A DNA stretch of 59,900 nt, filler included, from Sphacelaria rigidula (taxonomy: Eukaryota), in assembly GCA_964200075.2 (NCBI GenBank). It is 7 parts of 7 records of this genome, joined end to end, with 100 filler letters (N's around TTAATTAATTAA, not from the genome) between each part and the next. Parts side by side here need not be neighbours in the genome. Positions count along the whole stretch, not along the records: positions 42,859 to 51,329 come from CAXNAA020011034.1; 6 more parts are not named here. The stretch is one strand, 5' to 3'. The notes beneath the pieces are model-generated. The model searched no databases, was not told the origin of the DNA, and was given only the letters and a program-made list of their open reading frames with translations. Made by a program: the position numbers and the translations under genes. Of this stretch, positions 3,094 to 51,429 are shown one piece after another. Position 1 is the first letter of the stretch. Every line of letters begins with the position of its first letter.

Positions 3094-4709
3094 AGAAATC
3101 TCATCAACCCCGAAATTTGAAATAATACCCGACCAGTCTAACGGAGGAAGCAGAGATTCGCCAGACATTCTTGAAACCTCTCTATTTTTTTTTCGGGTCC
3201 CAGTATCTAACCTCATATACGTTCTCGAGAAACCTTTCAACCCAGGTTACTTTATTTACCGGTGTTACTCCTCGGTTTTAGTGTATTCGAGAATATGGTG
3301 TTTCCATTGTGGACACAACAAATTTGGTCTATCACAGCGCAAAATATATATGGTTGTGGTGAAAATACGAAAGAAGTAGTCACGGGTCAGTTAGCAATCT
3401 TTATCATATCTTTCCTTACGTTGCATCCACCTGCTGTAGTACCTGTGGGAAAAAAAACATACCCAGTGCATAGATACTGCAAGGACTTCTGCACATGTCC
3501 ATTTTCCCGGGCGAGATGTATGTTTCCTGTCAAATCTTGAGCTGTAGCGACGATGAAAAATGAGCACTATCTCTCCAAAGATGGGTTTTTTTGCACCGCG
3601 CCACGGAAGCATCCAATGGTCTCCCACACGCGTACCACGGGCATCCGAGGATGACGTATGCCTAGCTGTGCATTCGATAGTTGCTTGTGCGGTCATGAGC
3701 AATTCAGAGGTGGGTATCGATGCTAATTATAAGCGCTTGGGATGTGTTCCCTGTGCGGATTTGATCAACGGATATTCCTCAATATCCTGGACTTGGCAAC
3801 CCCTAGACGAAATATCGTATCCTCGGGGTATTAATTCCCTTAGAGTTCTCGCAAAGGTGTCCCCTTGCATACACGAAGCCGTGGCAATGATGGGAAAATA
3901 TCATATCACTCCGTCTCGGAACAAAAATTAGGAGCGTGTCGACTTTTGTGTGTGGCATGGTGGTTGAAGCTCAGGCATATGAACCCACGGTGAGTATGCG
4001 AATTGTCGCCGGAATCGTGATGTTCAAGTTTATGCACGTCGCCAGAAGTTCCCGATATCGATCTTTACAACTGATGTGATGCCCGCTCGGGTTGCCCGAT
4101 GAGGTTAGCTTTCCGGTATAATGGTACCCTCATTGCGCGTGCCGAACAATCACTGGCGAAGCTACGCCATAAAAAGACACCGTGTGTGCGACCTTGATGT
4201 GTGCCATGTGCCCTCCCTCGAGACTTGTCACCTGGGCAGAGCAAAAGTAACCCCGGTTTCGTCCCTGAATCATATGGTGTTTTCCCCCGGAGAAAAACAC
4301 AGGCGTACCTTCTCTCATTTTGTATTTTGTGTCAATGGCTTTTGTATTTTATGTCCATGGATTTTGTATTTTGTGCCAATGGAGGCACAAACTCACGTGG
4401 CACCATAAAAAATCCTCTCGCAACAGACGTGACGTACAGTGGTGTGTAACATGGACTCTTGAAAAATAAGGAGGCTTTTGACACCGCGCGTATAGCAAAG
4501 GTATGGAGTAATGGCGTTACATGTATCCCAATCCCATTTTCCCTTCGCCTACCCAGAAATTCTTGGTACCAGGGCTACGGTAAGCCCCCTTGCAAGTTTA
4601 CGGCAGTGGTGAACCGCCTCTGGCCGACTCCCTTGATCATCCCATCCGCCCGTCGGGCTCGTTTCTTATCCCCTCCCTATTTCCGTCCCACGCTCGCCCT
4701 CCCTCACAG

Positions 4710-7217
4710 TATGGTGCTCTCTAGTCTTCACCATGCGTCGCGACGGGCGGGGTACGGACTCCGCGGCGAGATCGCCACCCTGACGTGGTTGGCTTTCTTC
4801 GCGAACGCTCTCTTGATCGTGCTCCAGCTGAGCAAGCCGGATCCACCCGACGCGAACGGAGCGAGTGTGTACGTTCTCGCGGATTCTCAAGATGGGCCTC
4901 CGGTCACAACCGGGTGGCAGGCGTTTTGGGCCGGCGACGAACCAGTCGACTTTTCGACCGGAAGGGCAAGCAGCGTCGGTAGAGGTGGAGGCCAAGCGGG
5001 GGGTAGCTGTCTCTCATGCTGTTGCGGGATCGGTTTCCTTAGGCAATGCGGTCGCTGCTGCCGGGGGCCTTCTTGTGGTACGCCAAACGCTGATGACGCT
5101 GACGTGTACAGGAGCGAAGCCGGGCTTGATCGCGGTGTCTGGTCAACCGTCGGCGGCCCAGAGGCTTCCGCCACGCTCAACGATTCTCTTCTCGGAAGCA
5201 TTGCGTTCGGGGGCGGGTTGGAAGGGGAAGCATCGCTGTACCGATTGGAGAAACAACAGGGTGGTGGCGCAAGGGAGGATGGATGCATGCGAAAAACGGG
5301 CAGGTTCTTGTCTTCACTTATCGTCGGAAGGAAGTCGGTGCCCGATGGAGAAGACGAAGAGTCGCTCAGACGGCAGCAGCTTGATACCACGTATCGAGCC
5401 TCTTCTGCGGGAGGGGCTGCACTGTCGCCGGGGGCGGGAACACTGATAAGGCCGAGAATTGGGCGCGCGCGGTCTGACAGCTCCTCGACATACTCAGTTT
5501 CTTCCCGAGCGCGGGCGCCGCCTCAGGCCGCGGCTCCGGTGTTTGGCGCTTCGGTCACTCGGTGGCGTCTCGTGAACGCAGACGGGATCCCATTGACGCA
5601 ACGTGGTCTGCCGCCAGATGCTGCCTTGACTGACCGCTCAACGGATCGGTCGTCGGAGCGGACCTTCAGTGTGTCTTTTCACACGGCCACCACCCTCGGC
5701 GAGTCTGACACAACCACCCACGGCGAGAGGACTTCATCATCATCGTCGTCTCCGATCGCTACGCTCGGTAAGACCACCGTCAGTATTGGGGACGGTGACG
5801 CTAGTGGTCCACTCAGGGTCCAGTTCGGGCTTTCGGTCAGGGCTAGCGGTCGCGGAGAGATGGATTGGTGGGGGCGCGACGTCGGGACCCCAGCAAGCGG
5901 CGTGGCGTCGACATCGATAGCAGGAGCGACCGCAGCGGGAGACTGGCGAGTGTGGCGCTCATCCGCGGATGTCCTCGCGCTGTACGATGCGCTAGCTCTT
6001 CACTTTGGGCAAGAATTCTGCGCACGCATTGCGCGGCCGCAGCTGAAGACAGCAAAAGTTTTACGATCGGCCGACGGCGCAGCAAACAGCGATGAGAATG
6101 TCCTTGGTTCGCAGCTGGATAGATCGCCCGCACAATCGAACGCCCCTCATCGTGTGGATATATCCAGAGACGCCAGAGCGATTGGAAGGTTTCTACGCAA
6201 CCTCCTGGGTCTGCGACAGTTCTTGAGGTGAGGGGGGGGGGGGTGTACTCATGATCATGCTTGCCATAGTCATCAGACCATTGACCTCGCTTGAGGTGAG
6301 GGGCGGAATTGTTAAGCCTCCCTCTGCAAAAGCCATTTTTTTCTATCGTTTTGGTTTGATTGCGCAGTCGCTTTGCGGGGGTACCCCTTCGTTGTCTCTG
6401 TGAGCTCACCATGTCGGATGGCTCCACCCGAACCTCAAAGGATGAATGCTGGACCCCAACACGAAACCGTAGGAGCCAGCAAACGGGGGTCGCGCTGTAC
6501 GGAAACCGTACGGTACTGACATGCTGTGTTTCCTTGACACATTTGAAGACAGGACACTCCCTTGTTCCGCATGCGGTGCGTAGCACTTACTTCGGTTGAA
6601 ACGCCCACATGCTCATTACTGTCAAGTGTTTAATACATGGCCATCCTTCCTGCCACCAACCCCCCCCCCCTGCCCCTTACCTTCTCACCACGACCCAAGA
6701 AACCTCCATTTTTACACCCCCGACCCTCGTCGTTGACCTGCCGGTTCCGTTTTGAATTAGCACCGCGGTAATGGACTTTTTAGCGCAACCGCCCCCAGAA
6801 GCGCATGCCCCAACGGAAGCAACCACTGAGTCTTCCGCAAACGTGGACGCTGAGAACTGGCAAGGCTCCGATGACTCGAGCTGTGAGGACTACTCAGAGG
6901 ATGAGCTTGTTGCACCACCGAGAGCGAGTGGCGGGTTCTCCACCATCACCACTGGCGCCAAGCGCAGCAGATATAGTCGCTCTGGTAGGCGACACTTTGC
7001 TGCGGGGAACAACGACGGTAGCGCCGGCGGCGGTGGAAGTTTTGCACCTGAGGACGACGATCCAAAGGCAGCCGGCGAGGCGGTTGCCGGGGCGGCTCTG
7101 GCGGCGGACTACGGAGCGTGGCTCAAGCGCCTGGCGGTAAGACTCCGAAGGGCGACCCCGGCGGGCGATCGGTTTGTTCGACTGCGCCGGATCGGGCCAA
7201 CTGTGACCGGAGAGCAG
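4710..7217 (+). CDS. PX-domain + DEP-domain protein, two internal exons (4710-6227, 6761-7217); partial gene
   Basis: Acceptors CAG at 4707-4709 and TAG at 6758-6760; donors GTGAGG at 6228 and 7218. Splicing gives WRVWRSSADVLALYDAL...IGRFLRNLLGLRQFL-S-TAVMDFL, a PX-domain-like pattern. Exon 2 ends GDRFVRLRRIGPTVTGEQ, a DEP-domain-like start. Confidence 0.7.
6236..6289 (-). mobile_element. Truncated poly(C)-ended retroposon copy with 14-bp TSD
   Basis: Flanked by CTTGAGGTGAGGGG at 6222-6235 and 6290-6303. The sequence matches 41220-41272, 8705-8762 and 10910-10963. Confidence 0.75.
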
Positions 7218-8173: not shown

Positions 8174-8472
8174 TGTGAATACCACCATATAGGAGGGAAA
8201 CTCCCACCAACATGAAAGGAAAAAAAATGCTGGATTAAGCGGGCCAACAAGATGTCGAAAACGATCGATGATCAGAAAACTGGTGGGTGACTAGCATGCA
8301 GAGTTTACAAGTCCACGGGAAAGTCTTGTGTGAAGATCGTTGGCTTGCACCCTAACAACCGCAAAGCATTTGTGCACAAAACATGCAAAAAATATCAAAT
8401 ACTGTTCACTGGCGAAAAAAGCTACCTCCACAAACTTCTTCTCGTCGAACAGCGTACGAGGGGGGGGGGGGG
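8174..8472 (+). mobile_element. Diverged TRIM-like fragment, cut by the linker
   Basis: TGTGAATACCACCATATAGGAGGGAAACTCCCAC resembles the LTR of the TRIM at 50493-50907, and the segment ends in a PPT-like G run. Confidence 0.4.
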
Positions 8473-8572
8473 NNNNNNNNNNNNNNNNNNNNNNNNNNNN
8501 NNNNNNNNNNNNNNNNTTAATTAATTAANNNNNNNNNNNNNNNNNNNNNNNNNNNNNNNNNNNNNNNNNNNN
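8473..8572. other. Artificial linker N44-TTAATTAATTAA-N44
   Basis: Six-frame-stop spacer repeated every ~8,572 bp. Confidence 0.98.
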
Positions 8573-17044: not shown

Positions 17045-17144
17045 NNNNNNNNNNNNNNNNNNNNNNNNNNNNNNNNNNNNNNNNNNNNTTAATTAATTAA
17101 NNNNNNNNNNNNNNNNNNNNNNNNNNNNNNNNNNNNNNNNNNNN
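17045..17144. other. Artificial linker
   Basis: N44-TTAATTAATTAA-N44. Confidence 0.98.
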
Positions 17145-23019: not shown

Positions 23020-24379
23020 AAAGATCAGCCACCATTGAGCCGGTGGTGATAATCCCATCAAAGAAATGAGGTGGCATGTTAGATGCGGAAGGACTGGTAT
23101 GCGTGACTTTTCTTGTGACGACGTTGAAGGTTATATTTGCTGTGCGATATATTTTCTCTCTACTACTTGTTTCCATTCACCTGTGTACTGTATTTTAGGC
23201 GCAACTATTGTGCATGTGCTCGCTACTGTGAAACCCATTCGGTCACAGTGAGCCTTCTGTACGTGAAATCCCGTCCTGGCCTGCAGCTCCGTCAGCTCAC
23301 CACGATGTGGCTCAGGTGACAGCTCATAAGCACGCATAATATCGATTTGAATCTGACGACCTGAATTGGATGTTACCGCGAACTACCGAACGTAGACCCC
23401 CGAGAGAAAATATTTTGACGTTGTTCGGAACGTGCGAGGACGATTACTCAACGATCTCCAAGTCTTGCCGCGGTTATTGTGCGTTAGTTTTTGCAACACG
23501 AACTCTCATGCCCACACGGGCCCTTTTGACAAGATGTGTATGTCGTTTACCAGAGATTTTCGAGCGCATCCCAATATGATCCGTGACATGCGCTAAATAG
23601 AGAAGTAGAAGATGTATATACGAGGTGCGTTCTGCCTGTGATTGGGTTCCATCATATATGTAGTGTAGCGGCGCACGGGTGGGAAAAGCGCACGTGGCTA
23701 CCTGGTCGTTCCCCTAAGTACCTTAGTGTATGTCAGCTGTGTTGATAGTGACCCCTTCTTGGCGGTCTCGTAGGTACGGACAAGTTTAGGTGTAGCCTGA
23801 GAATGGCACAGAGCGTATTATTTTTGGAAAAACAGAGCTCTGTGCTCATCATCAGTTAGAGCGATATGCGTGACTTGTAGCCATCCTCTTCCTTTATCGC
23901 TGTTGTTCACGTGCCAGTCACCATCGGTGTGATTCCCGGAAGGTTCGGTTCGTTTGTAGAACAAGGGCACTGAACGTGGACGAAATAGCTTACTGGTAGG
24001 GACCGCGAGGATATAGTCTTTTCACCAAGGATTTGACGGGCTAGAATCCTGGCATGAGCGGGTAGGCCACCTCGACCAGGCTTTGGCGACGACTGAAACC
24101 ATGTTGTACAGAAGTTTTTTTTCGGTTGCACTTTCACGGCCGACACCTGGATTATTGCGCCGAAAACGGTGCTGCTCGCGGGATAATATTCGATTGTAGT
24201 GTAAGGGTCAATATATCACTTGTTATTAATATGGGGAAATATTTGGATTGTTGCCTCGGTACATATGATCAATATATCTTGGTTTCGTTGTTGAACACGT
24301 TTTGATTTAGTATGGGATTTTATACTAATCACCACACAGGGGGTGAAGTAGCACGCGTATACCCAATGGACCGAAAGAA

Positions 24380-25616: not shown

Positions 25617-25716
25617 NNNNNNNNNNNNNNNNNNNNNNNNNNNNNNNNNNNNNNNNNNNNTTAATTAATTAANNNNNNNNNNNNNNNNNNNNNNNNNNNN
25701 NNNNNNNNNNNNNNNN
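25617..25716. other. Artificial linker
   Basis: N44-TTAATTAATTAA-N44. Confidence 0.98.
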
Positions 25717-26054: not shown

Positions 26055-29000
26055 ATCCCCCTCAATGGAAATAGCACTCAGGAGAGATGAAGAAATCCGA
26101 ACGGATGACTATTCTAGGCCTAGTTATGCAAACGCATGCGTCCATTTCTGAACATTCCCTACAATGTACACTTGGATTTTCAACTCAACACTTTCTACGT
26201 TATCGTTTATTCAAAACACAGTCGTGATCCAGCCACACGCTAGAAAGTACGCATCAGGCCGGCTCCCTTGTTCGCGTCCTTATTTCAAGTCCTAAAGGTC
26301 TTGGTTACGCGCAGCAGATGCAGGTAACGTTGTTTGCCCAATTATTTCGTCCCAATGTCGGCGATGTTGTTCTTGGTGTCCACGTGATGAAGGGTGGTCC
26401 TCGCTTCTTAATGAGTTCGCGAATGAAGAAGTAGCGCAATTCCGCATGCTTGGTCCGTCCACTGTAGGTGCTGTTACCAGCAACGTGAAGTGTCGAGGTG
26501 TTGTCGATGTGAACCGGAACTCTGTGAAATGCCTCGCCGAACCCCAGCTCCATCATCATGTTGGAACAGAACACAGCCTCCTTCATTGCCAGCGCTGCCG
26601 CCACAAGCTGAGCTTTCATTGTCGACTGAGCAGTTAGACCCTATATTCCGACTTTGAAGCTCACCGGAGCGTTCGAGAGCATGGCGATATACGAGGACAT
26701 CGATTTTCCGTTATCCGGGTTGTTCCCCCAGTTGGTGTCCGAAAACGCCGTGAGCTGAAATCCTCCCTTCTTGTACGTTATATCGAAAGTAGCACTCCCC
26801 GCAAGATAACGTAGAATATGCTTCGCAGCACCCATGTGTGCTTTTGATGGTGTGGACATCGCTCTTGCAAGCTGGTTGACAGCAAACTGGATATCATACC
26901 GGGTCACTTGTGCGAGATAAATTATCGAGCCGGTGATCGCCTGGAATCGCTGTGTTGCCGCCGAGTCCAGAAGTTGCTCTTCCGGCTGATTCAATGACAG
27001 CTCTGCTCCCGTTCCTGGTGTGCTCAGCGGATTGCAGTCCCCCATGCCGTACTTCTCCAGGATCGATTTGGTGTAGTTCTCCTGGCTGAGACTGAGCGTC
27101 CCGTTCTTGCGATCTCTGGTGACTCTCATTCCGTGTACAAGTGACACGTTTCCCATGTCCGTCATTTTGAAACGAACCGTGAGCTTTTTCTTGAGCATTT
27201 GCAGTACCGCCACGTCCCCTCCAACAAGGAGCACATCGACCACGTAGAGAATGAGAAGCGCGACAACCTTCCTCTTTCCAAGAGCGGTGCTGACGGTGTC
27301 ACCCCGGGAGTTATCGGCCCTGATCTCGTCGTTGTCGTCGTTATCAGTGAAGATATAGATGCAGGGATCTGAAGCGAGAGAGGTGAAACCGATATCCCCC
27401 AAACACTTGTCCATCCTGTTCCACCAATTCAGTGGCGACTGGCGAAGGCCATAGAACGATTTCCGGAGCTTCATCACGAGAGGAACTTTCGTCACGGGAT
27501 CATTCTCCTCATAGCCCGGGGCCATGTTGACGTATACTTCCTCTTCAACGGGCGCGTTTAGAAATGCCATTTGCACGTCCAGCTACCAGATTTCCCAGTC
27601 CATCTCCACGGTCGCTGCAAGCACCATACGGATACTCTGTAGCCTACAGACGGGAGCGAAGGTGTCACCGCAATCGATGCCCGATACTTATCACCATCCT
27701 TGGACGACCAGTCTTCCCTTGTATGTGTTGTCGGCTTTTACCTTGTACACCCACCGGGATCCGATGGCTTTCATCCCTGCAGCAATCGCCGTGAAGGGTA
27801 CAAGCGTGAAGACATTATTGGAACGGAGGCTTTGTATTTCTTTGTTTGATGCTGCCTTCCACTGCTTCGCCTCTGGCAGTCGCATTGCCTCTTGAAAGGT
27901 GTTCGGCACTATGGCCACTTTCTCCCCCTCCGAACAACTTCGAATTTGGGTGTCTGTGGTAGAGTACGCATACTCCAGAAAAGAAACTCTATCCTCGTGA
28001 GCGATGTCTCGCATATTTGCCCTGATGTAGAAATCGGCCAAAGTCTCCAGGCGCTTTAGCTCGCGGGCTTGAGCGCTTCTCGTGCTCGCACCGGAGATGA
28101 CGTCTATTGGGGCTTGTGGACTAGCCCGCGTGCTGACACGCGAAGAACCCGCTTTAGGTGACGGTGTTGTAGCTGGAGGTGAACCTTCAGTGACTTGTTC
28201 TCCTGTAGACGCTCCAGTAGGGACCTCTCCCGATGAAGATCCGATAAGGTCGTTGACGCGGTCCGTCACATCGCGTAGATCTCCGTGTTGTTTGCTTTCG
28301 CTTAGAGCACAAAGGTCACAGATTGATAGCGTTCCATCGTAGCTGATACCAGAGCCTTCCACCTTCCGAAGTACATTCAGACTCTCGATGCCGACGTGAC
28401 CAAGTCGACGATGCCAGATATTTGCGCCGGTGCTGACGTGCATAGCCACTCCAGGTTGATGCCCCGGGTGGCCGCTCAGCTTCATGCGGAACGTGTAGAG
28501 GTCTTGGTCATGGATCGATTGTTCCAGGGGAAACACGAACGATGAAGTCTCCAGTTGGGGATGAAATTGATCGAAGATTGCGATGATGCCTTGCTTGGTC
28601 GCCACTTTCACGGAGAACAGATGACGCCCGAGTCCGGGGACGACGAAGCAAGAGAGGGCGACATGGTGCGCCTTCTCTTCTCGGTCGGTAACTGTACCAT
28701 GAATGGTGGCAGTTGCAACTGCTTCAACTCCATTCTGTCCCCCTGCTAAAATATTAAACGGCTGTTCGAGGGCCGTGTACTCACTCGCCCAAGCTAAAAC
28801 ACCCAACTCGAGATTGGTGTCCAAGTAGTGACCGGTCGCGCCACTGTCCACCAGCCAGGTTACGGAGTTGGTGTCGATGGCTGTCCGAGCCGTTGACACC
28901 GTCGCCATGAAAGCTGCCCTAGTACCCCACCGAAGGCACCCAAGAGGTCAATCGTGTTTTCTCCAGCATGCTGTGGTGGGGTGGACGCGCCGAAGGATAA

Positions 29001-30080
29001 CACTGGAGGAGCCGAGGCCGTCATCACAGGTTGCAGGGATCCTCCGACTGTTCCGGAAAAATTGCTGTTTGCAGCCGTCGCTGCGGCAGGCGGTGGGATG
29101 AACGACCCGGGAATGCTTATATTGGCGATGTTGGCGCTTCCATTCGTTGCTGCTTTCGTTTGTTGTACCTTGCACTCGGCGTCGCTGTGCGTTGTTATTC
29201 TATGATACGAGCACCATTTTGATGCCTCGTTCCCCCCGTTCTTCTTTCCTGCTTTTCGACGTCTCTGTGTCGGGTTACTTGGCCGTTTCCGACTTCGCTT
29301 GTTGTTCGGGCATTCACGTTGATAGTGCCCAAACCCCTTGCAAAGGTGACACTGTATACCAGATGTCGTAGCCTGCATGGCCGTCCCAGGTCCGGCCACG
29401 GTTGGTGCAGTTGACGTACCAAAATTCCGATCATTGTACGCGTTGCACATTGCGGTGCGGATGTTGTCGAGGCCGAAGTCGCGCTCGGTGTAGCATTTCG
29501 TGCGTACAAAGTCATACTCGGGGATTATCGCCTTGAGGATAATGTCCTCGTAGCGATCGTCGTGCATTTTATCCCCAAGACCCTCCAGACGCAGTCGAAG
29601 TTCGTCCATGTCTTGGAAGAATTTTTCGGGGTCCTCGCCCGGTTTCATCGTGCGGCTAACCAGCTGAGCGTGAACTGCCCGCCTCGCCGCTTTGGTGTTG
29701 CCGTCGAACTTCTCAACCAAGGCCTTCCACGCACCTTGCCCATCGCCGACCCGCGGGTCATCGAGATCTTGATCCTCTGTGTAAAAAAACCGCCGGATGG
29801 TCGCAGCTGCAGGCCCGATCGTTGAAGGGAACAACAGCGAAAACAGGTCGCTGTTCTTTCGGTCCCATTCGCGCCCTGCTCGTTCGTCAGTAGGCCTTCG
29901 ATGACCGTTGAGAACGGCGAACATCGGCTTGTCAACGATAGAGATAGCTACTCGCAGCTGATTTTTCCATGCAATGAAGGTGTTCTTATCGTTCGAAAAT
30001 GTAGATACCCGTTTGAATACGGTCGCTCTGCGGTCGGAACTGGTGGCGGTGTAACTCATCATGCAGAGAGAAAATGAACC

Positions 30081-30483
30081 ACGCAATGCTGTGCGATTCG
30101 AGGCTTATCAATGCTCGACGCGCAAGTGCGATTTCCCAGACTGTGCCGCCTTCCTGCGCGCACAGGTTTCAACTGTAGCTTGCACAGACTGCAACTGATG
30201 CAGGTTTCGTCCGCAGGGATGATGAAGTACGCAACGCTGTGCGCTTCGAGACTTATCAATGCCCGACGATCAAGTGCGATTTCCCAGACTGTGCCGCCTT
30301 CCTGCGCGCACAGGTTTTCACTGTAGCTTGTACAGACTGCAGCTGGTGCAGGTTTTGTCTGCAGGGATGATGAAGTACGCAACGCTGTACGCTTCGAGGC
30401 TTATCAATGCTCGACGCGTAAGTGCGAATTCCCTGACAGTGCCGCCTTCCTGCATGCACAGGTTTTCACTGTAGCTCGTACAG
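30081..30483. repeat. 148-bp tandem repeat (~2.7 units) in the Copia 5' leader
   Basis: Units start at 30081, 30229 and 30377 with ACGCAA(T/C)GCTGT(G/A)CG(A/C)TTCGAG(G/A)CTTATCAATG. Confidence 0.9.
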
Positions 30484-31388
30484 CGTACCGCCTTGACTCT
30501 AGATACAACAGTGTTTTGGTGAGATTGAGAGTCTACGATACGATTGAGAGCAGACTTGAGAGCAGGCTTTTCATGGCTTTGAGCGGCCGGTTGTGCCTGC
30601 ATCATTAATGGACAAAACGCTTACCTCGCACATTGGTGCAATATCCTGCCGGCAAACCTATTGATGTTTCACTGGGTTTCATGCGAGAACGCTTCGTCGC
30701 GACGTTAGAGAATCCTGGTGCGCTAACTGGTGATGCTTCCCTAATCTCCGTAGGAAGGTGCTTGGATAGGACATTAGTTGAAAACCGAGACATTCTAAAG
30801 GATAGTGTCTATTCATCCGTTTTTTGCTGCAAACTCCGCTAACAACAGTAACAGGACAAGTTTCGAATAATGTTTCGACAAGTGCAGAGATGAAGTATCG
30901 CAACTGTTCCGAGTATCAAGGCAACACTTAATATCACGAGGGACAAACCTTCAGCCCGCGATACATATGCCACTGATGCCTCACAAACAAACCGCCTTGT
31001 CGTGAGCGAATTCCAGGTTTGTTCGCTTTTGCGATGGAAAAGAGTATTTCATCATCAGCAGGTAGTTGTTAACGACATTTTGAGCCAAGCCATGAAAACA
31101 ATCCCTCCTATGAGAGATATTCTGTTGCGGGGATTGTAATTATTGCGCCTGCGGCGGAACCGCCTGTATTCCCGAAAACGCTGCACAACTTCATATACGC
31201 AGAACCTGTAGCCAACCGCGAACAAGACCATATCGACAGCTATATAGCTGCACAATATTTCCGATAACAAGACGACTATCATGCGCGCGAGTTGAAGCCA
31301 GTACACAGCCGGACAAAATCGGTGGTACGACGGGAATGGCTACACATGACAAGCCCCGAACGCCGGGTGTCGGTCAACTCTCTGCCTA

Positions 31389-34187: not shown

Positions 34188-34287
34188 NNNNNNNNNNNNN
34201 NNNNNNNNNNNNNNNNNNNNNNNNNNNNNNNTTAATTAATTAANNNNNNNNNNNNNNNNNNNNNNNNNNNNNNNNNNNNNNNNNNNN
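34188..34287. other. Artificial linker
   Basis: N44-TTAATTAATTAA-N44. Confidence 0.98.
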
Positions 34288-35126: not shown

Positions 35127-37970
35127 CCAAGGCATACCGAGAACGCTCGGGTAAGGGCAACGCAAAGGGTGCCCTAGGCAAAGTGTGCGTTGGCAGACCT
35201 TAAATCGGTGCCTTGGACAAAAAACACGTTGTGCGCATGCTAGGAGCACTCGGAACTATCAATTCCACTATATATCCGAATCTCGGTGTTCGCGCTTACA
35301 TCAGCTATTATGTTTGAACCATGGATTTTACGTCTACGAGCTCGGGTAAAGTCTAGTGATCGAGAGGTAGGCTTAGATCGATTCGCATTCTGGGGTACTT
35401 CACATACCTTGAACAAGCAAGTTGATCTTAGTGTGGTGATGCCCACTATGAAACCTATCTACACATGCGTTCAGGAGATAATCAAGCCTCGTAGGATCAG
35501 CGTTGCCCCTGAACACGTCATTATTCGCCCAGAATATTATATAATATGGGGACCGCCCACTTCACGCCGATATCCGGCTCGCAAAATGCTGTAAATTTGA
35601 ATATAATACGAGAACTCACTATATAATTATGATCCACTATTTCCCTTGTTTTTTTTTACAATATCTACACAACGACACTCGTCCGTTTACTTTGGTAAAT
35701 TTGTTCTTGACCCTGGAGTCAATTCGATGCTTAGCTGCTTTACAATTGGCCTTGACTGGATCACTCAAGGTGTCTTTTTCGAGTGCTTTCAAACGACGAG
35801 GCAATGGTATATACAGTTGTACACTCCTTCGATTCGAATGGCTTCGTCAAGAGCCTACGACCACCGCGGGTTTTGTCGTGCGCCGGTTGTTTGGCGCAGC
35901 CATCGATCCTCGTTGATGCCCGGCGGTTCTAGGTGGGGGTTTCTGTGCCGTAGGTTCGTGTATATGAGCACATATAACGCGAGTACTACCAGTCGAATTG
36001 GCGCCCACAGTCGCTGAAGGCTCCGTCGTTGATCCTGCAGCAGACTGCCGGTGCTGTGCGACAGAAGGATGCACAAACGATGTGCTTCGCCCCGCGCCCC
36101 CCGTTTGCCTTGATTGCATGGATCTGGAATAAATTAATTAATAAACAGTTTTGAGGAGGATCAAAAATATCGTTCGCGGTTCGAGGATTTGTGAGAACGA
36201 ATAAACCGATCCATCGGATTTATGCATATATATCTGAACACATTGTATTGGGGTTTATAAAACCGTTCCCAGTACCTAGTAGGTATAATATAGCGGGATC
36301 TACTTAGCAACTCGGAGCACAACCAACGTAAGATATATATGGGTGCTCATGAAGAAATGCTTCAGAACCAGTACGACATCCCCCTTGCTGTACAGTACAA
36401 AATTGATACGAAGATTGAGCGCATCGCCAACAACGTCATACATATGATGTACGCCGTAGACCTCTGTGCCGTGGACGTGTCGGGTTGTAGTCCGCCTTTT
36501 TTTCACACAACACAGCTGATGCGAAACGCAAAGTACTGAGGAACGTATTGCGGGTTTTGGAAAGCGTCGTATGCATGAGATGTGTACGCTGACGAAAGAA
36601 CATGTTTCCGGAACTTCGGAACTCTCTAGTATGTCTGCTTCTTCTGTAGGCATAGAGCTCACGTTCGTGTTGGTGAAAGCCCCCCCGCCAGGGTATTTCT
36701 TTTTGGATAATCTGATACGGATCCTCGCTGAGATGAGACCAAAGAATACCTCCGCCCGGAGATGGTCGGTTGAGATAGGATGGTGGACGACTTCCGCCCG
36801 GATTTGGTCTGTTGTATCTGTGACGAAATCGGTCGAGAAAGAACGACCGAACAGGAGCAGGATATCGTGTGACGTGAAGGCTGCTACAGACATGCATCTC
36901 ACCGGCCGCAATGGAGCCTACGAAATGCAAGCCACGATTTTCTCCTGAACGATGTCGTACTACTGTGAAGAGTCCATTTCATACCACGGCGTGCGGTGAC
37001 TCTGGTACGTTTCTCGAGCGCATCGCCCAACTATTTGGCAGCGTCGGACGGCGCCGAGGCGTGCGTGTCGTATCTACTTGTAAGGAACATATGCTGCTGT
37101 ATGCACCGCAGTGTAGGTGGGCACAAGCTACGTCTATGACGTTCAACGATCAACTTACCAGCCGAGTTTGTCGTCGGGCCTCGACTGCCGATTTTGCCGT
37201 CGCGCTTGCATCATGGTCGGCAGTTCCCAGACCAAACTGACTGGCTTCCCTTTCCCGAGGGGCTATTCGCGTATCACGAGTTTTGTCCCCGTTTGCACGT
37301 CATCGTGAGTTTTTCCGAATGAAAGAAACAGAAGCGTAGCGACATGAAGGTCAAGGTCGTCGCATGGTAGTGGCTACAGTATGCGATGTGCTCTTGCTTG
37401 ACGTAGATTTCAATGCAACCGGCGGTGAGCGGTATTGATATATCGCACCGGACGTGTGTTGCTGGTGTTTTGATGGCACAGGTCACGTCCCACTCAAGAG
37501 GCGTTCACGGGAGGGAGGTGCCTACAAAGACAAATCGTGAATGGGTTAGCCAATAGTTTTGAGAGAGCGAACTCTAGAATCATGGCAAATACATCTGTTT
37601 CCGACACCCCGTCTGATCGATTGGTTGATTGATTGTCGCACACTACTTTAACTGATCCGCTGCGAATCCGATGGTGACACAAGGTAGAAGCACCCGAAAC
37701 GAATAAGTGGCGCATTCGAGAAAGTCGAAATGTGGAAAAAGGAAAGAAGATGGCAAAAACAGTAGCGTGAGGGTGAGAAACGAAACGCCACCTGCCTGCC
37801 ACATGGCTTCCGGCAAGGGAGTCGTGCGAAGAACAAAAATGAAATGAACGGAATTCCCACCCGTAGTCACGCACTCTGCAGGGGCAAGACACCAGCACCA
37901 AACATCACAGGGAACGAGAACCAAAGCTCAGACAACAATATGAATAAGAAAACGAACCGACTGGAACGGA

Positions 37971-38310
37971 ACACAACTCAACATAACATAGCATAACGTA
38001 ACATAGCATAACAAAACATAGCATAACGTAAAGTAACATAACACGACAGAACATAATACAACATAACACAACATAACGTAACATGGCACGACACGACACG
38101 ACATGACATGGCTGGCATGACATGACAAGATATAGCATAACATGAAATAAAACACCATAACAAAACACAACATAACAGCACATAATATAACATAGCATAT
38201 CAGAACATAACACACCATGACATAACATAACATACCATCACATACTATGACATGCCATGACATGCCATGACATAACGGAACATAACAGAACATAACGAAA
38301 ACAGGACGAG
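37971..38310. repeat. Degenerate pentanucleotide microsatellite (ACATA/ACATG/ACACG)n
   Basis: Clear 5-bp periodicity over ~340 bp; it produces the spurious MLCYV-type ORFs. Confidence 0.9.
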
Positions 38311-38745: not shown

Positions 38746-38968
38746 TGCATTGCGTGAGCGGACCGCGTGCTTTCTGGACCACATCGGAGTTCAAAACACC
38801 CCGGGACCGACATTTTTCAAGACCACTCGGGCCACTTCCTGCAGGGACCGCGCCCCTGACCCTGACCCTAACACTAACCCTAACCCTAACCCTAACACTA
38901 ACACTAACTATAGGAGTGTTTGAAATCCGATGCGGTCCAAAGAGCACGCGGTCTCCTCACGCATCATA
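38746..38968 (+). mobile_element. Telomere-repeat-carrying MITE, copy A (most diverged)
   Basis: Imperfect ~45-bp TIRs (TGCGTGAGCGGACCGCGTGCT / AGCACGCGGTCTCCTCACGCA) and an internal CCCTGA/CCCTAA/CACTAA tract. Confidence 0.85.
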
Positions 38969-41996: not shown

Positions 41997-42195
41997 TGTA
42001 ATGCGTGAGAGGACCGCGTGCTTAGAGGACCGCATGGTTGTTCGAAACACCTCAGGATCGACGTCTACCAAAACCAATCGGGCCAGTCCCTGCAGGGACC
42101 ACGCCCCTGACCCTAACCCTAACCCTAACCCTAAACATAGGGATGTTCAAACTCCGATGGGGTCCTGTAAGCACGCGGTCCTCTCACGCATTACA
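41997..42195 (+). mobile_element. Telomere-repeat-carrying MITE, copy C
   Basis: Perfect 28-bp TIR TGTAATGCGTGAGAGGACCGCGTGCTTA, flanks CAGGC/CTGGC and an internal CCCTGA(CCCTAA)4. Confidence 0.92.
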
Positions 42196-42758: not shown

Positions 42759-42858
42759 NNNNNNNNNNNNNNNNNNNNNNNNNNNNNNNNNNNNNNNNNN
42801 NNTTAATTAATTAANNNNNNNNNNNNNNNNNNNNNNNNNNNNNNNNNNNNNNNNNNNN
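42759..42858. other. Artificial linker
   Basis: N44-TTAATTAATTAA-N44. Confidence 0.98.
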
Positions 42859-44963: not shown

Positions 44964-47212
44964 GTGATCAGGTTATGGGCTGGAATAGGTGAAAAGAAGG
45001 ACCGCGGGTAGTTTTCTGCGGTGCATCGCAGTACGTGAAACATTTGTGTGGTTCAGCGCAAGTTTGCAAATTTCGAGCGCTATACCGTACCGCGGAATCA
45101 CAAGATTATATTTCCCGCGACCGTAAACTATCGCCCCGCGAATGAGTCCATGGCACCGCTCTGTACTGTACCGTGAATCAACCATATTGCGCCATACCGC
45201 TGCCACCGTTCAAATACTGTCCGGCATTTTGCAGAAACAAATCATGACAAGTTGACTCAATGATCAACACCACGCCACACATCGTGTAAGTGCAGCGTTC
45301 GAACCCCGCCCCGCCGTCCTTTCATTTACTATTTTATTTTTACTCATTATTTTTCTCGGGGCAAGTGACGACGGCTCGAAGCGATACAGAAATGGCATGG
45401 ACTGCCTGTAGCGGGAAAACATATGGTGTGCTGAGAAGATTTCACGTTCCACTCCAGGAAGAACCTCATGTATATAAATATAAATACACGTACATCTAGG
45501 AGTTGTTTTCCAGTTAGTTGAGGCTGCGTCATTTTCTTAGGTGTTCTCAATTGCTGCAATACTTCTCCTGGCATCAGTTGTTGTTTCACGTGCATCATGT
45601 ATTATTTTGGCTTCTACCCTTGGGTCGCATTTTCGCAATTAACAAGTCCTCCCGTGTTTTCGAACAGGCTGGTTCACGCTTTCGATCCAAGATTCACTAA
45701 TCAGCGAATGTCTTCCGCGATGCGTACCCCATAGTCCCGTAAGAAGTATCACACTGACCGCCGAGGAAAGCTCAAGAGGGTGACAACTTTTCGTTTCAGA
45801 TCATATTGGTGGCGCTAAGGGCGAAAGAATGGCGAAATAGTACGTCGCCCGTTCAGCGGCCTTCCAATTGTTCTAGAGTAAAACGACGGGTTCCCGACAC
45901 GACTTCAACCCAATCTCCACATGCTTCAAATTTTAGAAACTGCCATCAGCTCGGCAATTAATGGGAAAAAGTTCCTCGAAAACGGTTGCCATGGGATCGA
46001 GTTATGCCCCAAACCGTGCTATTCCGGCAATGTGGGGTTTTGACGTCGTCCGATTCTCACTGATGATTTTCACCGAAGACCCAGGAGACCTCCCGATGTT
46101 TTCCCTTATATCTGTCGTTGATACTGATGCTCAATATGGGAAAAATGTATTGTTGAAACTATTTCCAGGGTTTATCCGCCCTTTGCCGGCTTCCGGGGAT
46201 CCTCGCGTGTAGACCCCCGGGAAGCCGGTACAAAACGCCTGAAAACAGGCAACAAACCACTCGTCACGCGATAGTTCAAGGAACATTTGTGTAAAGCGTT
46301 GTTGTGTAAATAAAATAAACTGATGCAATAGGGTAGTTTTTGACGTTAAGCTAAACCCGAAAAAGTTGCCCAATACTCAAACAGAGTAATTAAGACCATT
46401 ATCTTTCAAGTCAACTGTTCCGCATAAAAGCCCAAATCTTTACGCCGATGCTTGCGAGATAGAGTGAAACTTTGCGCACCTACACTGTAGATCATTTAAA
46501 GACTTTTGATGAACGGTGTTTTTTTTTTTCCACCCTTTTTTTCGTAGCCCTCGAGGGTGCAAAAAAGGGCATCTTACTCCCCATGACATTGGAATCCCCA
46601 CTAACCGGCGAAAACAAATCGAACAACACCGCCAATTCAGAGTTTTGAAATGCCGCATAGAGTATATATGCATTTTTTCAGAGTCTAATTCGAAGAATTG
46701 GCGTGAACATTTGTGAATGAATGAATGGTGGGGTGAATGCGTGAACTAGTCTGCAGTTGCGCTCACATGTAACAAGATTTTCGCGAAATATGGGGACAGC
46801 CTTTTTCATGTAATGAAACGCAAGCAGTTCGTGTTTTAGAGCCGCTTGGATGCGATCCCACCAATTGATGTCTCACACAAAGCTCTTGACTGTATGATCG
46901 AGTGGATACCCTCTTTAACGGTTCCCCATGCGTCCATCACACGTTAACGAGATGCACGTGAATCCATTAAAAACGACGGCGCTTTTCGCGATTTATCAAC
47001 CTGCTCGTCAAAATCATCCGAGAAAAATGGGCGGAAAGACCTAGCAGCCGTAAAAAATGATGGATGGGGTATGGGGTCACCAACAGTATTGGCCTTTGAA
47101 CTGTGAGCCGAAGCTTCCGTTCGAGGCACCCTGTGTTAACGTGCATCTGAGCGTCATTGTCCCTGAAAATCGGTTGGTCCCTTTTCTCAGGAAAATTTTC
47201 TTGGGTGGACTC

Positions 47213-48879: not shown

Positions 48880-50165
48880 TGCTACCGGCGACTCTCCATG
48901 CCACAGTCTCTTGCTTTTGGCGTATCGGGTTAGCGTATGTCTTCGCGTCGTCCGCCTCCTGGGATTCCTCCGCCCCTGTCTCTACCCCCAGCTTCCATCT
49001 GCCCACGTTCTTCGCGGCAGCAACTCACTCTTGTGTGTCTTTGATCTGCATCCGGTATGCGAATCGTACCCTCCGTTCTCCTCTGCGTGGGACAGACCCG
49101 AGCGCTCGCAAGTCCTCCTGGAAGCGGTGCCCCAAGTTCTTGGAGCGCTCGTCAGCCTCCCTAGACTTTTGTGCGGCCGACCGTCCGAAGATGATGCGCT
49201 ACGAAGACGTGGTTTCTCCTCCCGGACAAGGACCGCCGCAAACCAAAACTGACACTTGCGCATGGCTGTCTCGATACGCTCCGGTCATCTCGAGAGCAGC
49301 TCTGTATGCAAAAGTCTTATGTTCATTGCGGTTTGAGTATGTAACGTCTGTTAGTGTCAGGTGTCACTGCCGTTATCGTTCGTCTGTTTATGGGATTGTG
49401 CCCGTTGGAGGCTCGCCGACGTCTTTTGCGTGCGAATCGACCAAGGAACCGAACTGAGACGCACACGATGTTTTTATCTGAGTGCGGCAAGTTGTGCGGT
49501 CAAAGGTGAACGATAGTATTTTGAGAAAGTCTAGGGTGGGCTTTTCGTGTGGGGGTGCAGTCTATGCGCTTCTTGTCCGCAGGACGGCTAGCAATACCAT
49601 TACAGTGGTCATAGGCGGTCTCCCTCAGGGGCGGAAGAATGTTTTTCACCAGCGCCTGGTGTCACGTGCAACTTGGAGCAACGCAGCACCGCTGTTGTCG
49701 CTGGCTTAAGAATCCTGGCCGCATGTCCGTAATGTTGTATGCTTACTCTTTCCTGATCTTACCCTAGTTCTAGCGTTAGCTTGTATCAAAACAAACAGAT
49801 AGTCGCCGTTGGGAACTCGGTTTACCGAGCTGTCCAACTCAGTTCAGAACGTATATCTTTTTCCTTGGCCTTGGAAGTGTCGGGTGGGGGCATAAGCAGC
49901 TACGAACGTAGCAGCGTTCGATGTTCTCCTGATGGGTTGAAAGTCATCAACAGGAGGCGTTCGCTGACGGATGCCTGTGTCCACGTAGCCATATTGACGA
50001 TCGAGTCCTTGACCGCCAGCCCAACCCCATGCTGTACAGCCCTACCATTGTCCCCTTCTGCACCGCAGTTGAAGACGCGGTATCCCGCGGAAGAGAGCAC
50101 ACTTTTACCGGATCATCCTTGTCTCTTGCATTCTGGTGTACGGACGTTGTAGGTCGCCACTTTAG
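48880..50165 (-). mobile_element. RTE-type LINE remnant, internally deleted
   Basis: APE endonuclease motifs VATYNVRT, QETR, GVGLAV, SERLLLM and YAPT lie at 50165-49880. The C-terminal RIIFG...EDLRALG...WVAAAKNVGRWKLGVETGAE lies at 49300-48960. No RT core is seen between them. Confidence 0.75.
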
Positions 50166-50492
50166 TCCTCCTACTTGTGACCTAGCTCTAGCGCCATCGA
50201 CGTCTGCATATTTCGCTCTTTGTTCTGCCCTCCTTTTTGTCCAGGCCTTCCGCCTAACCTTTGTGAGCAGTTTGTTTCTGCTCTAACTTTTTCTTGGTTA
50301 ACATGTCTAGGTAGTTCCCTTTTGCGTTGGTCCGATGGAGAGGCGCAGTCGTCTCAGCCCGCGTAGGCAGCTAGTTTTCATCCGCTGAATCTCGCACTTA
50401 CTCACACATGTCCCAATGTCTACCCTTTCAGCGTCTATATTGAATTTTACAGGTATTTCAGTGCTGGTAATTCCGACTGAAAAACATCGGTA

Positions 50493-50907
50493 TGTGGGAA
50501 CCACCATATAGGAGGGACGAATTCCCACTAGTGCCTGTCAAGGAATCACCTTTTCACACTGGTGACACGATGAAATAGCTCGCACGTTTCACGAACACAA
50601 GGTCCCGGCTTCAAATTCCGGGTCTCACCAAAATGGTGGGAGCCAAACAAATGGTGAGTACCCTCGGAAGGGGAGTTCAAAACTCACAAAAAATCTGCTG
50701 CGGCGGTTGTTGGTTGGATGACTCAACACACGTAAAAGACATGTGAACTAGAGGCAAGATTCCAACCGCTAGCCGACGTAAAAGGGTATTCCTGCACAAC
50801 CTCCAAGAGGCTCATGAGAGGGGGAGGGGGGGTGGGGGTGATGTGGGAACCGCCACATAGAAGGGACAAATTCCCACACGTGTCTATCAAGGCATCACCT
50901 TTTCACG
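50493..50907 (+). mobile_element. TRIM (miniature LTR retrotransposon), 415 bp
   Basis: 66-bp LTRs at 50493-50558 (TG...CA) and 50842-50907, 56/66 identical. PBS TGGTGACACG at 50560 and G-rich PPT at 50816-50840. Confidence 0.85.
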
Positions 50908-51329
50908 GATACTGGAGGATGACCTGTTGACTGGGCGTAGATGAATACCGTTTGAATGTGAGCGCTGAGAACGGTGTATGTTAGATCTTGAGCTTCATCT
51001 GACACGATGGACCCTGAATTTCGTCGCGTGACTAGTGATGGTATCATGGCCAATGCATTTGCGTGACATTTGTGTTGACGCCCACTACTCGATGCGAGGC
51101 CACACAATGAGTGACGCGCCCACACGCGACGACTTGAGATTGTTCGGACATGTATGGCTACAGGTACTACTGTTTACGCAATCACCGCCTACAGTGATCT
51201 CTACACGCCATGGGCACTGTGCTCCTGATTTCAGACACGAAGGATTTTCAGGAAATAGAATATACTTCCTCTGTCCCATAAGCAAAGTCCGTTATGGGCT
51301 TTTAATCGTTTGTGCATTCAAACTCTTCC

Positions 51330-51429
51330 NNNNNNNNNNNNNNNNNNNNNNNNNNNNNNNNNNNNNNNNNNNNTTAATTAATTAANNNNNNNNNNNNNNN
51401 NNNNNNNNNNNNNNNNNNNNNNNNNNNNN
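51330..51429. other. Artificial linker
   Basis: N44-TTAATTAATTAA-N44. Confidence 0.98.

Follow-up and report, generated by a model that had tools for sequence, protein, structure and literature searches.

Positions 50493–50905 of the analysed window, which is the whole 59,900-nucleotide stretch taken from the Sphacelaria rigidula assembly GCA_964200075.2, are occupied by a small, non-coding LTR element of 413 bp. Direct repeats of 66 nt, 86% identical to each other, are located at 50492–50557 and 50841–50906. Repeat comparison, contig breaks and depth delimit the 5′ LTR at 50493–50556, and the 3′ LTR occupies 50842–50905; both are 64 nt long, begin with TG (50493 and 50842) and end with CA (50555–50556 and 50904–50905). 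A TGG triplet is found 3 nt past the 5′ LTR, at the start of the primer-binding site PBS1 (50560–50571), which begins with TGGTGAC in this copy and with TGGCGAC in the majority, and whose complementarity to a tRNA is putative here. A polypurine tract (PPT, 50816–50841) with two T interruptions abuts the 3′ LTR. All these features lie on the plus strand. The largest stop-to-stop ORF lying mostly within the element comprises 64 aa, and the element has no gag–pol capacity. The LTR–PBS–internal–PPT–LTR layout described in the initial annotation is thus real, with two TG…CA repeats, TGG shortly after the first repeat and a purine tract before the second.

The left flank CGGTA (50488–50492) and the right flank CGGAT (50906–50910) may represent a 5-bp target-site duplication; the candidate is weak, with three of the five positions matching, a level expected by chance with a probability of about 0.1 according to our own binomial arithmetic. 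The 5′ LTR contains the ATATAG-containing core ACCACCATATAGGAGGGA and a GTGGGAA/TTCCCAC hairpin (folding z = −2.1), and the same hairpin was found in both LTRs, as had been annotated. The element is located in the sixth of the seven 8472-nt pieces composing the window. The pieces are joined by N44-TTAATTAATTAA-N44 spacers (8473–8572, 17045–17144, 25617–25716, 34188–34287, 42759–42858 and 51330–51429), so contiguity across the joins is not to be assumed; the palindrome detected in the window is the spacer.

Distribution of the element in contigs

Contigs of three DNA runs (X1, X3 and X5) and of one possible RNA run (X6), taken from sequencing runs labelled "organism A" and "algae metagenome", were aligned to positions 49800–51329 at 80% likeness. 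In X1, the depth, which is summed over contigs and is not equal to copy number, is 71–76 in the flanks, 4176–5746 in the internal bins and up to 24,917 in the LTR bins, the depth of the element being 55–330 times that of the flanks; from bin 50922 onward, past the 3′ LTR, it is down to 76, the single-copy level. Upstream of 50493, unrelated sequence is present in 38 contigs of X1 and 39 contigs of X5. The excess of depth and the unlike upstream flanks indicate a dispersed multi-copy family, where LTRs far outnumber internal parts. The assignment to TRIM-type elements is upheld by the terminal repeats, the size, the PPT and the multi-copy family. The LTRs of the copy at 50493–50905 have diverged by 14%, and X5 contains this very insertion as well (records 18 and 24); together, these facts indicate that the copy is old.

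The same majority letters were obtained in X1, X3 and X5, and the variable sites listed are each supported by 36–105 separate contigs; these letters come from collapsed contigs, carry no per-copy linkage and refer to the listed sites, beyond which there are 220 further variable sites. Pattern scans for further copies in the viral_contigs, metagenome_contigs and genome_contigs collections gave 0 loci. The run X6, only guessed to be RNA, contains diverged copies of the family, but its element-to-flank ratio does not exceed that of the DNA runs, and therefore no statement on expression is drawn. A variant with the joint 50554/50649, devoid of 50555–50648 (PBS, tRNA-like part and hairpin), occurs in a single contig of X1 and is the best-represented form in X6, with a depth of 75.8.

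Two other repeated stretches were noticed in the vicinity of the element. Upstream of it, positions 49902–50054 are moderately repeated (X1 depth up to 2968 vs. about 71–190 nearby). Positions 51260–51298 contain a very high-copy short repeat with sharp boundaries at 51260–51263 and 51296–51298, where the summed X1 depth is 140,000–303,000 vs. 76 in the adjoining single-copy DNA.

Related element and other repeats of the window

A BLAST match (8181–8207, 89.7%) and an alignment revealed a related small element on the plus strand at 8174–8472, cut by the end of the piece. The two elements have the LTR start in common, with 18 identical nucleotides around ATATAG; judging from the sequence, the region common to both LTRs is likely to be the core promoter. 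At the aligned place, where a PBS is expected, the related element contains AAAAC-TGGTGGGTGAC, with the motif TGGTGGG; it possesses no T arm and ends in a G run, resembling a PPT, at the piece boundary.

Several other repeats were found in the window. A copia-type remnant on the minus strand (26641–30510), also cut by a piece end, contains gag, pre-integrase and RT domains in separate frames, and three 148-nt tandem repeats are located in this region at 30067–30510. Telomere-like CCCTAA runs (38878–38905 and 42105–42135) lie inside a repeated unit present in two copies, 80% identical, and this unit adjoins a microsatellite-like array with a period of 10–15 nt (37951–38301). Another repeated unit (795–890 and 2253–2340) includes a tRNA-like stretch with a 7-bp acceptor-like pairing TCGCTCC/GGAGCGA, GGCTCAGTTGGTA, GGTTCGAATCT and a T7 tail; ARAGORN made no call in this stretch, and the unit may represent either a SINE of tRNA origin or a pseudo-tRNA, embedded in a 1.45-kb repeat.

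The tRNA-like module

Motifs and majority letters define a tRNA-derived module on the plus strand at 50576–50630. Counting from the 5′ end, it contains the A-box-like TAGCTC, the variable-loop-like AGGTC (50600–50604), a T arm (50605–50621) and a 3′ strand ending in CACCA (50622–50630). The T-arm-like hairpin CCCGG/CTTCAAATT/CCGGG was located at 50604–50622, in agreement with the initial annotation. Its loop, described there as B-box-like, has two mismatches to GGTTCRANNCC in this copy, but fits the pattern exactly under the majority letters; with G at position 50609 (36 contigs in X1) and C at position 50617 (46 contigs), the 9-nt loop gives way to a 5-bp stem (50605–50609/50617–50621) enclosing the loop TTCAAAT, i.e., an exact B box and T arm with AGGTC just before it.

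Taken by itself, this copy is not conspicuously tRNA-like; the T arm becomes canonical only with the majority letters of the family. Sites matching GGTTCRANNCC with at most one mismatch occur at the chance rate (30 in the whole window vs. 28.8 expected), and no exact match is among these 30 sites. ARAGORN found no tRNA in the window, nor did it at thresholds of 90% or 80%; at 70% it made three calls, all on the opposite strand, and at 60% one plus-strand call at about 50565–50640, with a four-base anticodon, among five low-score calls. The Rfam search, run up to E = 10, matched no tRNA. The two mismatches of this copy, the chance-rate near-matches and the outcomes of ARAGORN and Rfam would suit a fortuitous resemblance to tRNA in an ordinary leader rich in TGGTG/CACCA-type words, as would the enrichment of the element in TGGTG (3 vs. 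0.7 expected) and GTGGG (4 vs. 0.46 expected). Such a coincidence is very improbable, however, because the majority letters jointly restore AGGTC, the 5-bp stem and TTCAAAT with its flanking G and C, while the expectation for an exact B box, the stem not counted, is about 0.002 sites per 285 nt by our own estimate.

Insertion of an independent SINE into this copy alone, the other refuting outcome named in the initial annotation, was ruled out, as the tRNA-like stretch shows no less depth than the remaining interior: in X1, the depth over 50565–50666 is 5199–5746 vs. 4176–5024 in the remaining internal region. The segment is absent only from single contigs, with the joints 50568>50625 and 50554>50649 found in one contig each. 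The data support a tRNA-like segment that is real, tRNA-derived and common to the family.

The 70-nt tRNA mimic proposed initially stands in part, as a tRNA-derived 3′ portion present family-wide, but it is neither a cloverleaf nor a tRNA recognised by the programs, and it folds weakly: for the 77-nt "tRNA mimic", z = −1.37 and 21 of 200 shuffles fold as well. Manual inspection found no acceptor or D stem in the 5′ half of the module; only TAGCTC is tRNA-like upstream of the T arm, and the strand leading from the T stem to CCA falls 2 nt short of that of a genuine tRNA. The segment thus derives from the 3′ part of a tRNA but is not itself a tRNA. The combination of a cloverleaf, A and B boxes and insertion boundaries of its own, as in a tRNA gene or a SINE, was not found.

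The module is followed on the plus strand by two further PBS-like motifs (50634–50663), neither of which adjoins an LTR end. The first, TGGTGGGAGCC, is present at 50634–50644 as annotated; the second, TGGTGAGTACCC, is also present, at 50652–50663, but starts at 50652 and not at 50653. In most copies, A is replaced with G at 50657 (22 contigs in X1), and the second motif then also reads TGGTGGG. The tRNA-like 3′ end (50623–50630) forms a plus-strand hairpin (50620–50644) with TGGTGGGA at 50634–50641, with the loop AAA and two outer G–C pairs. In this copy, the hairpin has an energy of −16 kcal/mol and z = −3.91, with none of the 200 shuffles being as stable; it is also part of the whole-element fold. 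With the majority C at 50625, the lone G–U pair gives way to G–C, and a perfect 8-bp helix results, 50623–50630/50634–50641.

The exact B box of the majority, with TAGCTC about 33 nt upstream of it, brings to mind an internal Pol III promoter, composed of the A-box-like motif and a canonical B box, or else a B box that would recruit TFIIIC to another effect. According to the accessible text of PMC10886601, the elements Helenus, Cassandra and Ajax, termed "TRIMp3", are TRIMs with tRNA- or 5S-derived Pol III promoters in their LTRs, and show that TRIMs can bear such promoters. The first TTTT downstream of the module is located at 50900–50903, at the end of the 3′ LTR, but about half of random 270-nt stretches of the same composition are free of TTTT by our own estimate. 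The A-box match is partial and the D stem is absent, and the LTR possesses its own conserved TATA-like core. Moreover, a Pol III transcript starting near 50565 would lack the 5′ R and U5, would not permit the first strand transfer and thus would not be the replicative template. A Pol III promoter in the module, similar to that of TRIMp3 or not, is accordingly considered unlikely.

Perhaps the module works as a structure of the leader, a tRNA mimic beside the PBS that would aid packaging, dimerisation or primer placement. The module directly follows the PBS, the majority letters preserve both its T arm and the 8-bp hairpin, in contrast to the decayed 5′ half, and the X1 depth at 50617–50625 (5995–6749) exceeds that of both neighbouring stretches (about 3800 and about 2900), as if this part were more widely shared. 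A precedent exists in HIV-1, where LysRS is bound by a tRNA-like element close to the PBS that structurally mimics the anticodon domain (PMC5113203, accessible part); in both cases an RNA resembling tRNA lies in the leader near the PBS, but the module of the present element is a sequence-level remnant of the T arm and 3′ strand with a putative function. Genuine tRNA genes with a matching T arm could also account for the extra depth, the related element at 8174 has no T arm, and the two single-contig variants mentioned above dispense with the segment. A working leader structure appears quite improbable.

Primer-binding site and self-priming

In LTR elements, the position adjacent to the LTR defines the priming site. 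By this logic of LTR replication, PBS1 is the priming site in use, since 3 nt separate the end of the repeat from 50560; the tRNA-like stretch is not duplicated in the 3′ LTR, so priming does not take place at the downstream TGG motifs. The X1 depth steps down at the LTR end, from 25,541 at 50534 to 15,829 at 50563 and 7616 at 50569. Other occurrences of similar sequences in the window, namely TGGCGAC at 24084 and 54455 and GATCCCACCA at 46854, were considered and discarded, being neither in PBS nor in tRNA contexts.

It had been proposed that the element encodes its own primer, i.e., that a tRNA mimic of about 70 nt is excised or folded back and its CCA end primes the LTR-adjacent PBS. In this copy, TGGTGACAC (50560–50568) and GTCTCACCA (50622–50630) do pair at eight of nine positions, as claimed, and self-priming has a precedent in Tf1/sushi-type LTR elements; in Tf1, it is the initial 11 nt of the transcript that anneal to the PBS. 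The pairing is marginal against chance, however, since, when the internal region was dinucleotide-shuffled 5000 times, a complement of at least 8/9 to the PBS 9-mer arose in 246 cases (4.9%).

The pairing is also lost in the family. In X1, the majority letter is C instead of T at 50563 within the PBS (15,218 of a depth of 15,829, or 96%; 75 contigs), and, within the proposed anti-PBS, A instead of G at 50622 (6336 of 6749; 53 contigs) and C instead of T at 50625 (5485 of 6749; 42 contigs), the shares in X3 and X5 being similar; at 50569, in the PBS1 region, the majority has C and this copy G. With majority letters, 50563/50627, 50565/50625 and 50568/50622 become mismatches, 50566/50624 being mismatched already, which leaves five of nine pairs and a longest run of 3 bp (TGG/CCA). 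Among the sites listed, no compensating changes were found at the partner sites 50627, 50565 and 50568, the outcome named beforehand as refuting the proposal. All three letters creating the pairing are transitions away from the majority, one of them at a CpG, as decay predicts, and the pairing is therefore best regarded as a by-product of decay. In majority letters, PBS1 is not complementary to the tRNA-like end of its own element.

In the fold of the whole element, the 3′ end of the module (50622–50630) favours the neighbouring TGGTGGGA (50634–50641) over the PBS, and the PBS (50557–50564) pairs with the LTR (50526–50533). The latter intramolecular pairing, predicted for the single copy, is similar to that of Tf1. 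Unlike in Tf1, both the LTR–PBS and the module–PBS pairings weaken with majority letters, the former from 8 bp to 6/8 (50529 and 50563 being the sites concerned) and the latter to 5/9; a family-conserved complementarity of about 11 nt between the 5′ end of the transcript and the PBS was not found. In Helenus, as far as the accessible text of PMC10886601 goes, Kojima's search for a PBS complementary to the tRNA-like part was negative. With no cloverleaf present either, a self-encoded primer appears exceedingly improbable, and the proposal is abandoned; the segment does not prime the PBS of its element.

The last 8–10 nt of the module are exactly complementary to TGGTGGG, both in the second and third PBS-like sites of the element and in the presumed PBS of the related element at 8283. 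If the A-like and B boxes directed transcription of the module and the product were trimmed at CACCA, it might act in trans as an element-encoded primer for TGGTGGG-type relatives, or in cis as a decoy that protects a PBS from silencing by tRNA fragments, a scenario we hold to be highly doubtful.

Comparison with known TRIMs

The published sizes of TRIM/SMART elements include 292 bp with 85-bp repeats (PMC3281118, accessible part) and 233 bp with 52-bp LTRs (PMC4717578, accessible part). The present element shares with them the short TG…CA repeats, PBS, PPT, non-coding nature, length of a few hundred bp and multi-copy state with LTRs far outnumbering internal parts. The likeness is one of architecture. 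The internal domain here holds a tRNA-derived piece and three TGG motifs; moreover, the hosts of TRIM/SMART elements are land plants and animals, whereas the host here is labelled an alga. A paper on the transposable elements of Ectocarpus contained nothing on TRIMs or tRNA.

Among known elements, Helenus/TRIMp3 comes closest, within the limits of the accessible text of PMC10886601, and the comparison is made with Helenus. Both are TRIMs carrying a tRNA-derived sequence with a conserved B box (in majority letters, in the present case), and in both the tRNA-like part probably encodes no working tRNA and is not complementary to the PBS in use. The tRNA-like sequence of Helenus is located in the LTRs, which is its defining trait, whereas here it is internal, just after the PBS (50576–50630, outside both repeats); in addition, the 3′ end of the module is complementary here to a neighbouring PBS-like motif. 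Neither of the 64-nt LTRs contains any of the 30 GGTTCRANNCC sites found at up to one mismatch. In the literature searched, as far as its main text was accessible and including part of PMC13570524, no TRIM was described as carrying its tRNA-derived part internally or in the leader beside the PBS.

Possible origin of the module

The element is probably an old, decayed copy of a dispersed TRIM family that is primed by a host tRNA at PBS1 and bears a captured 3′ part of a tRNA in its leader. Transcription of such an element would be driven by the LTR, with the conserved ATATAG-containing core as a likely TATA-type promoter, and the RNA would be packaged and copied in trans by the proteins of a putative autonomous LTR element. 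The minus strand would start at the PBS 3 nt past the 5′ LTR, from a putative host tRNA with a 3′ end fitting the majority TGGCGAC…, the plus strand would be primed at the purine tract, and integration would generate a target duplication of about 5 bp. As regards the autonomous partner, the copia-type remnant of the window (26641–30104, minus strand) was considered and dropped; it showed no related LTR and no PBS likeness to the element.

The 3′ part of the tRNA (variable loop, T arm and 3′ strand) would have been captured before the amplification of the family, and now, in the leader, it is predicted to form the T-arm hairpin and the 8-bp hairpin with the neighbouring TGGTGGGA. The layout on the plus strand, where the sense 3′ end of a tRNA is followed by AAA and then by the complement of that end, matches the product of an end-to-end template switch. 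Perhaps the minus-strand DNA finished an older TGGTGGG-type PBS, added a few nucleotides and jumped to the 3′ end of a tRNA. A Helenus-like ancestor, with an LTR once extending to 50630 and a PBS at 50634, was also considered and not adopted, since the sole T run is situated ahead of the predicted Pol III start, so that no R region would result. The perfect T arm next to a decayed 5′ half may point to selection for the B box or the structure, and not to a mere passenger.

The striking PBS/anti-PBS pairing of one copy, which arose by three decay transitions and is gone in the family, calls for caution; given this loss at the family level, claims of self-priming need family-level data. The module itself points to the capture of a primer-type tRNA during reverse transcription. 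In the literature searched, as far as it was accessible, tRNA-bearing TRIMs are so far represented only by those with the tRNA part in the LTR (Helenus), and a family with a tRNA part in the leader would widen the known routes by which small-RNA sequences enter LTR elements.
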